A DNA stretch of 64,000 bases. Origin: Nitrosopumilus sp. (GTDB lineage Archaea; Thermoproteota; Nitrososphaeria; Nitrososphaerales; Nitrosopumilaceae). The notes under the pieces were generated by a model. That model did no database searches, was not told the DNA's origin, and saw nothing but the letters and a program-made list of their open reading frames with translations. The DNA lies in contig OZ240211.1 in NCBI GenBank assembly GCA_965197525.1, positions 672,001 to 736,000 on the forward strand, read 5' to 3'. Positions 30,585 to 30,690 of this stretch are shown in pieces (position 1 is the first letter of the stretch; every line of letters begins with the position of its first letter). Position numbers and translations under genes: made by a program.

Positions 30585-30690
30585 GTGACATATCTGAAAG
30601 AGCGTACTCGCTGATTGAACTTGCATCCACGTTATCATGATGTACGAGCAGGAAGTGACATATCTGAAAGAGCGTACTCGCTGATTGAAC
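30585..30690 (+). repeat. 36-bp direct repeat / 34-bp insert / 36-bp repeat
   Basis: GTGACATATCTGAAAGAGCGTACTCGCTGATTGAAC at 30585-30620 and 30655-30690. Confidence 0.95.

Follow-up and report, generated by a model that had tools for sequence, protein, structure and literature searches.

Ample documentation exists for Cas1-Cas2 integrating off-target in vitro and in E. coli that overproduces the two proteins; little is known of how much such events matter in nature. The integration was described by Nivala, Shipman & Church (2018, Nat Microbiol 3:310), as were the resulting "neo-CRISPR" units (as presented in bioRxiv 10.1101/148544, PMC11788318 and PMC7054753). According to the preprint, their work concerned the type I-E system of E. 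coli with over-expressed Cas1-Cas2 and added circumstantial evidence of natural events in two species (bioRxiv 10.1101/148544). Grainy et al. (2019, PMC6698737) found that, in vitro, Cas1-Cas2 of Pyrococcus furiosus performs full-site integration without a leader at non-CRISPR sites, where a G or C is met at a spacing of one repeat and a few bases resemble the repeat. In the type I-B system of Haloarcula hispanica, the first cut is made at the leader-repeat junction and the second is placed by distance, independently of sequence (Wang et al. [quoted passage not shown] Off-target acquisition was also proposed as one origin of isolated mini-arrays (Shmakov et al. 2020, CRISPR J, as reported in PMC13142298). 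Finally, the "ectopic spacer acquisition" of S. thermophilus and S. mutans (PMC7999890, PMC5338259) also takes place away from the leader-proximal repeat, but these insertions lie within the array at a true repeat, whereas the one described here lies in unrelated coding DNA.

Our study concerns a stretch of 64,000 nucleotides (the window), which spans positions 672001-736000 of a closed Nitrosopumilus genome of 2.21 Mb and 39.6% G+C. In this window, a gene encoding a fusion of a DNA methylase and an HNH nuclease is split by a 34-bp insert (30621-30654, plus strand), on either side of which the same 36 bp stand in direct orientation and without a mismatch (30585-30620 and 30655-30690, plus strand). 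The original prediction had announced this 36-34-36 layout, and coordinates and lengths are exactly as it claimed. The duplicated segment starts with GTGACATA and ends with GATTGAAC. Its first copy is native methylase coding sequence (...CDISERAYSLIE), repeated exactly here and present in single copy in the paralogs. The sequence outside the 36-bp copies is unmatched, which means that the borders of this arrangement, hereafter the scar, are sharp. The insert is unrelated to either flank, and the probability that a 36/36 match at a spacing of 70 bp arose by chance is negligible.

The N-terminal open reading frame (29639-30640, plus strand, 333 aa) enters the insert and meets a stop at its seventh codon (...SLIE-LASTLS*), an in-frame TGA at 30638-30640. 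It comprises a complete N6/N4 DNA methylase domain (PF01555 in Pfam, E 1e-42, profile positions 1-219 of 221 covered) followed by six residues encoded by the insert. The displaced C-terminal part (30657-31043, plus strand), which lies in a different frame from the methylase part, carries the HNH nuclease domain (PF01844, E 1.6e-14) and aligns to the C-termini of intact fusions of 430-480 aa. Once the 70 bp are taken out in silico, a single open frame of 482 codons appears, and its repaired junction reads ...GCDISERAYSLIEQRLRAD..., the consensus of the intact homologues. Deletion of the 70 bp had been predicted to restore the methylase-HNH fusion, and it does. Here, the gene has no lesion other than this insertion. 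It had also been called knocked out, a description that suits the HNH part, which has been cut off, but not the methylase domain, which is complete along the profile; the term overstates the damage, since the HNH part alone is uncoupled.

The surroundings of the gene deserve a brief description. Upstream of it lies an IS6-type transposase (27969-29120), and between the two there is a 101-nt tRNA on the minus strand (29161-29261; Rfam, 41 bits), which was missed by ARAGORN and therefore probably contains an intron. This succession of transposase, tRNA and methylase is a layout typical of an island border.

Several comparisons show the direction of the change. Two paralogs in the same genome hold the target once and have a 70-bp gap relative to the window in the DNA alignment. 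One of them (genome 920757-921740, 77% protein identity) is an intact open frame of 483 aa; the other (genome 917807-918637, 71% protein identity) has an in-frame TAG. Databases contain more than 100 methylase-HNH fusions that are intact, with lengths of 430-480 aa, and the seven intact homologues that we aligned with both halves run uninterrupted through ...WIGCDISERAYSLIEQRL..DAGIAKF.... Because the target is in single copy in both paralogs and in the intact homologues, the extra 70 bp are derived. The orthologous empty site, searched with a 40-mer made of the target and 4 bp of its upstream flank, was found in none of the metagenome or genome contigs.

The original prediction had considered that the scar might be an artefact of assembly, and an artefact of assembly or sequencing is the explanation that we find hardest to believe. 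The same scar and the same truncated protein were found again in an independently assembled ENA metagenome contig (ERZ25067264, ctg810643, 40 kb; positions 1747-2970), with 99% identity over the aligned flanks and an insert shorter by one base. This recurrence in an independent contig rules out an assembly artefact, the more so as the two assemblies are not identical in this region: the contig has one more IS and differs at about 1% of its bases. Moreover, the insert is a unique sequence, not something that assemblers invent, and one of the sister scars described below is common to two diverged copies of one element. The extra IS of the contig encodes a 407-aa DDE_Tnp_1 transposase and interrupts the methylase gene towards its 5' end, at about position 29765 of the window; the sister strain shows further decay of an already broken gene. 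Relative to window positions 29764-33675, the contig is 35 bp shorter; 1 bp of this difference is in the insert, and the absence of a single 34-bp unit from the tandem array at 31757-31990 probably accounts for the rest.

The lengths that define the scar are those of the resident CRISPR system. The sole array of the genome (1512794-1523989) has 158 repeats, all of 36 bp (158/158), and 157 spacers that span 33-39 bp, most of them 35 bp (57), 34 bp (48), 36 bp (38) or 37 bp (10) long. It is the kind of host array that had been anticipated from the scar alone. The duplication has the length of the repeat (36 bp), and the 34 bp of the insert fall inside the range of the spacers and equal their second commonest length (48/157). 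A degenerate repeat lies at the low-coordinate end of the array and cas1 beyond its high-coordinate end, from which we conclude that the array is read from the minus strand; on this strand the repeat starts with GTTCAAAGG and ends with GATTGAAAC.

Spacer acquisition presupposes cas1 in the lineage, as the original prediction had stressed, and cas1, cas2 and cas4 are present beside the array. Together with cas6b, these genes adjoin the array on the minus strand (profile E-values of 7e-67 for cas1, which is the single Cas1 of the genome, 2e-12 for cas2 and 2e-9 for cas4), and the genes for a 594-aa protein, cas7, cas5 and cas3 lie divergently on the opposite strand. Cas6b is recognised by Pfam, and the 594-aa large subunit has no family match. 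As the best NCBIfam matches, Cas7/Csh2 and Cas5b, score below the curated cut-offs, we label the system "I-B-like". The genes for TiaS and diphthamide synthase, which adjoin the cas genes, mark the genome as archaeal. Elsewhere in the genome there is a solitary CRISPR repeat with one mismatch (1362555-1362590), 150 kb off the array and with no second repeat nearby.

The resemblance between scar and array extends to the ends of the duplicated segment. Since the array is on the minus strand, the end of the scar that matters is the plus-strand ...TTGAAC, i.e., GTTCAA, the start of the repeat. In the orientation of the repeat, the duplicated segment opens with GTTCAA, six bases identical to the repeat start, and a random 36-mer of this genome would open in this way with a probability of about 7e-4. 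The borders of the scar are G...C, and the bases just outside the border agree with the leader: the second copy of the target ends in TTGAAC followed by AG, and the leader-side end of the resident repeat is TTTGAAC followed by AG. Similar ends had been foreseen and are indeed found, the plus-strand repeat being GT...TTTGAAC and the duplicated segment GT...ATTGAAC. Over its whole length, the duplicated segment matches the repeat at 12 of 36 positions, which is the level of random DNA.

Might the scar instead be a functional unit, such as a working mini-CRISPR that produces a crRNA, an intron of small size or a site of translational bypass from which the fusion protein would still be made? It has the layout of a one-spacer array, and the codons needed for take-off and landing in a bypass match each other thanks to the 36-nt repeat. 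Yet, with the low overall match just given, the pseudo-repeat resembles the substrate of Cas6b at a third of its positions only, the predicted RNA fold is no better than that of shuffled sequence (z = +1.36), and there is no match in Rfam. In the ENA strain, the gene took a further IS insertion, as a dead gene would. A function of this type is thus very improbable, and we return to the reading of the scar as the product of an integration event.

A single event could be anecdotal, and the original prediction was that other scars of the same geometry should be present. Four more were found in this genome, one of them inside the window. Our scan of the genome sought direct repeats that are exact, 28-45 bp long, separated by at most 400 bp and present in exactly two local copies, excluding low complexity. 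Among the 26 pairs obtained, units of 36-38 bp were combined with gaps of 33-39 bp in four only, the methylase scar and three others, and arithmetic gives about 0.1 pairs expected in this range if the pairs were spread evenly. The second scar of the window (59766-59871, plus strand) consists of two identical 36-bp copies (59766-59801 and 59836-59871) with a 34-bp insert between them. Located between genes, it is unique in the genome, its duplication ends in ATATGAC followed by AG, and its insert has no other copy. It is flanked by an ORF for a 413-aa secreted protein on the minus strand and by a 125-aa ORF on the plus strand.

The other scars are outside the window. The scar at genome position 981256 (unit of 37 bp, gap of 35 bp) is found at the end of an IS-like element that has several copies in the genome; its 72 bp are missing from five sister copies of the element and present in one diverged copy (828506), which implies that the scar is old and has been multiplied together with the element. 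The scar at 1025450 (38/35) is intergenic. A scan tolerating mismatches revealed a further one at 2191251 (37/35, one mismatch), whose duplication ends in CTGAAC. There, the scar contributes 24 in-frame codons to the ORF of a 230-aa membrane protein, and precisely these 24 residues are missing from three homologues encoded by a related genome. Two of the five scars of this genome have no repeat-like end. Apart from the copied IS-like element, no second copies of the scar inserts were found in the genome. For two of the sister scars (E2 and E5), DNA searches of 60 genomes of the genus for an empty site gave nothing alignable.

The remaining candidates of the scans were discarded or left in doubt. 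The pair at genome position 772236 is a coding repeat rich in proline and glycine, and its "spacer" recurs elsewhere. Tandem repeats or repeats in proteins explain those at 360797, 493102, 933941, 1766861, 1939161 and 452246, and those at 1318322 (34/28) and 1637961 (35/58) have the wrong geometry. The pair at 2018014, with 37 bp around 42 bp and a run of poly-G, is doubtful.

This repeat family is present in one of 120 other genomes of the genus, G454 (2.51 Mb), where 74 repeats, each 36 bp long, alternate with spacers of 34-38 bp in an array adjacent to Cas1. In two other genomes of the genus (G002 and G018), Cas1 was not found. We applied the same two-copy-repeat scan to the whole of G454, and the scans for scars thus cover two CRISPR-bearing genomes. 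It gave 33 two-copy pairs, 19 of which have a period of 71-77 bp. These 19 scars, scattered from position 21872 to 2466835, have units of 32-39 bp and gaps of 34-41 bp, with sharp borders in all of them. When the scars of both genomes are put together, GT opens one border in 14 of 24, against the 17.6% expected (P about 5e-6, simulation).

The inserts of G454 are informative regarding the provenance of the captured DNA. About nine of the 19 match DNA elsewhere in the same genome, and in seven the homology stops at the borders of the insert; two inserts derive from multicopy IS elements, and one further scar is the copy of a whole scar. Homology that stops exactly at the insert borders is the pattern that the capture of a fragment would be expected to leave. 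No consistent PAM was found among the self-derived inserts of G454. By comparison, one of the 73 spacers of the G454 array matches its own genome. That spacer is leader-proximal (number 71 of 73) and matches the chromosome at 198216-198249 over 34 of 34 positions, in a region conserved with the present genome and with TAT as the flank on the PAM side. This match suggests recent self-acquisition or inactive interference there.

The scars of G454 also differ in their consequences for genes. Five of them, with periods of 72 or 75 bp, are in frame within ORFs of 235-1117 codons; in three, removal of the scar gives shorter frames of 138-166 codons. The scar of the methylase-HNH gene is the only clear case, in both genomes, where removal restores a long frame (482 codons, as given above). 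For the genes with in-frame scars in G454, tblastn searches found no orthologues showing an empty site in the present genome.

These data weigh on the hypothesis that a non-CRISPR enzyme or process inserts fillers of about 35 bp and duplicates about 36 bp of the target on both sides, and that the match to the arrays is a coincidence. Such a process could take the form of the footprint of a transposase or integrase, or of a templated insertion coupled to repair. Templated repair could yield copies of the kind seen in several inserts of G454, which reproduce DNA of their own genome. On the other hand, it would have to be fortuitous that the lengths of duplications and fillers match those of the resident repeats and spacers in two genomes, that GT, the start of the repeat, is enriched at the borders, and that the scar in the methylase gene has the GTTCAA of the repeat. 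Furthermore, the inserts have no terminal inverted repeats, and we know of no transposon family that makes target duplications of 36 bp. We consider this explanation improbable, if the least improbable of the alternatives to Cas1-Cas2.

The original prediction had left room for a casposase, the Cas1 homologue borne by certain transposons, as the enzyme that put the fragment in. A casposon insertion is recognised by a casposase gene, terminal inverted repeats and a duplication of 13-15 bp of the target. Casposons do occur in Nitrosopumilus, and the casposon integrase inserts short oligonucleotides in vitro (PMC8464041). However, the search for the Cas1 family yields one gene only, and it is within the cas operon; in addition, the target of the Nitrosopumilus casposase is a specific site, of which 13 bp are duplicated (PMC8464041), not 36 bp as found here. 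This variant of the prediction fails on both counts, and we give it very little credence, slightly less than we give to a functional unit.

Our results very probably reflect the activity of the resident type I-B-like system, whose Cas1-Cas2, with Cas4, would have placed a fragment of spacer length off-target in a full-site integration. The array, the cas genes, the ends of the duplication and the additional scars are as predicted under ectopic spacer acquisition, and they support this reading, in which we infer both that Cas1-Cas2 was the enzyme and that the insert was a captured prespacer. The integrase would have bypassed the leader-proximal repeat of the array and attacked the methylase-HNH gene instead, at a site whose minus-strand end, GTTCAA, offers the first six bases of the repeat. 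Two strand transfers, on opposite strands and 36 bp apart, would reflect the action of a ruler of repeat length, and the repair of the gaps would then duplicate the 36 bp on both sides of the 34-bp fragment. The added 70 bp shift the frame and bring a stop seven codons into the insert, leaving the methylase complete and the HNH nuclease cut off.

Several traits of the scars may be understood from what is known of archaeal integrases. A likeness to the repeat that is restricted to the end of the target would fit a first attack directed by the leader junction and a second one that is ruled by distance and independent of sequence. The duplications of 32-39 bp in G454 would similarly fit a ruler that is sloppy at non-cognate sites (PMC4872114), and the lack of the mid-repeat motifs at off-target sites may explain why the length of the duplications varies. 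As in P. furiosus (PMC6698737), the borders are G...C in the methylase scar, and GT is enriched at one border. The P. furiosus results came from a plasmid assay with a 30-bp repeat (PMC6698737), whereas we describe fixed genomic events, with a 36-bp repeat and looser duplications of 32-39 bp.

The source of the 34-bp insert was sought widely. It has no second copy in its own genome (at most three mismatches, and short BLAST), is absent from 400 genomes of the order at the same tolerance and has no exact match in IMG/VR; the matches to GenBank phage records are those expected by chance (E = 4), and the 24-mer core of the insert was not found in metagenome contigs. The inserts of three sister scars (E2, E4 and E5) also lack an exact match in IMG/VR. 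Accordingly, neither a protospacer nor a PAM for the insert came out of these searches. The insert had been described as foreign, and since its source sequence was found nowhere among the own genome, the 400 genomes of the order, IMG/VR, phages and metagenomes, this part of the prediction is unproven.

How do these observations extend previous ones? The process itself is already known, and what is new is a natural archaeal case that splits a gene, accompanied by many scars in two genomes. The resemblance to the events in E. coli of Nivala et al. (2018), as these are described in bioRxiv 10.1101/148544, includes a spacer-length fragment placed off the array, a duplication of repeat length, a border that is partly repeat-like and the possible damage to a gene. 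Unlike the over-expression events presented there, those reported here are natural, belong to an archaeal type I-B-like system with Cas4, and number 5 and 19 in the two genomes; one scar splits a gene and several stay in frame inside genes, which sets them apart from what the same preprint describes. The isolated mini-arrays of Shmakov et al. (2020), as they are summarised in the citing article, are recognised by their similarity to known repeats, whereas the scars have arbitrary pseudo-repeats. For this reason, standard array finders would miss them.

The 24 scars provide information on the raw behaviour of the integrase. They give a natural target preference, 5'-GT at one border, and point to a ruler of repeat length that is looser at non-cognate sites. 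They also reveal a new contrast, as self-derived inserts occur in scars and are near absent from the array. Taken at face value, the scars indicate that CRISPR adaptation can break genes and can add peptide segments to proteins, as with the in-frame insertions of 24-25 codons that long genes have retained. Whether integration at the wrong address is a recurrent mutational force in the few CRISPR-bearing genomes of the genus, with scars recording captures that have passed through no autoimmunity filter, is a proposition that we hold to be evenly balanced between true and false. If true, scars could serve to gauge how costly CRISPR adaptation is under natural conditions and what its raw specificity is.
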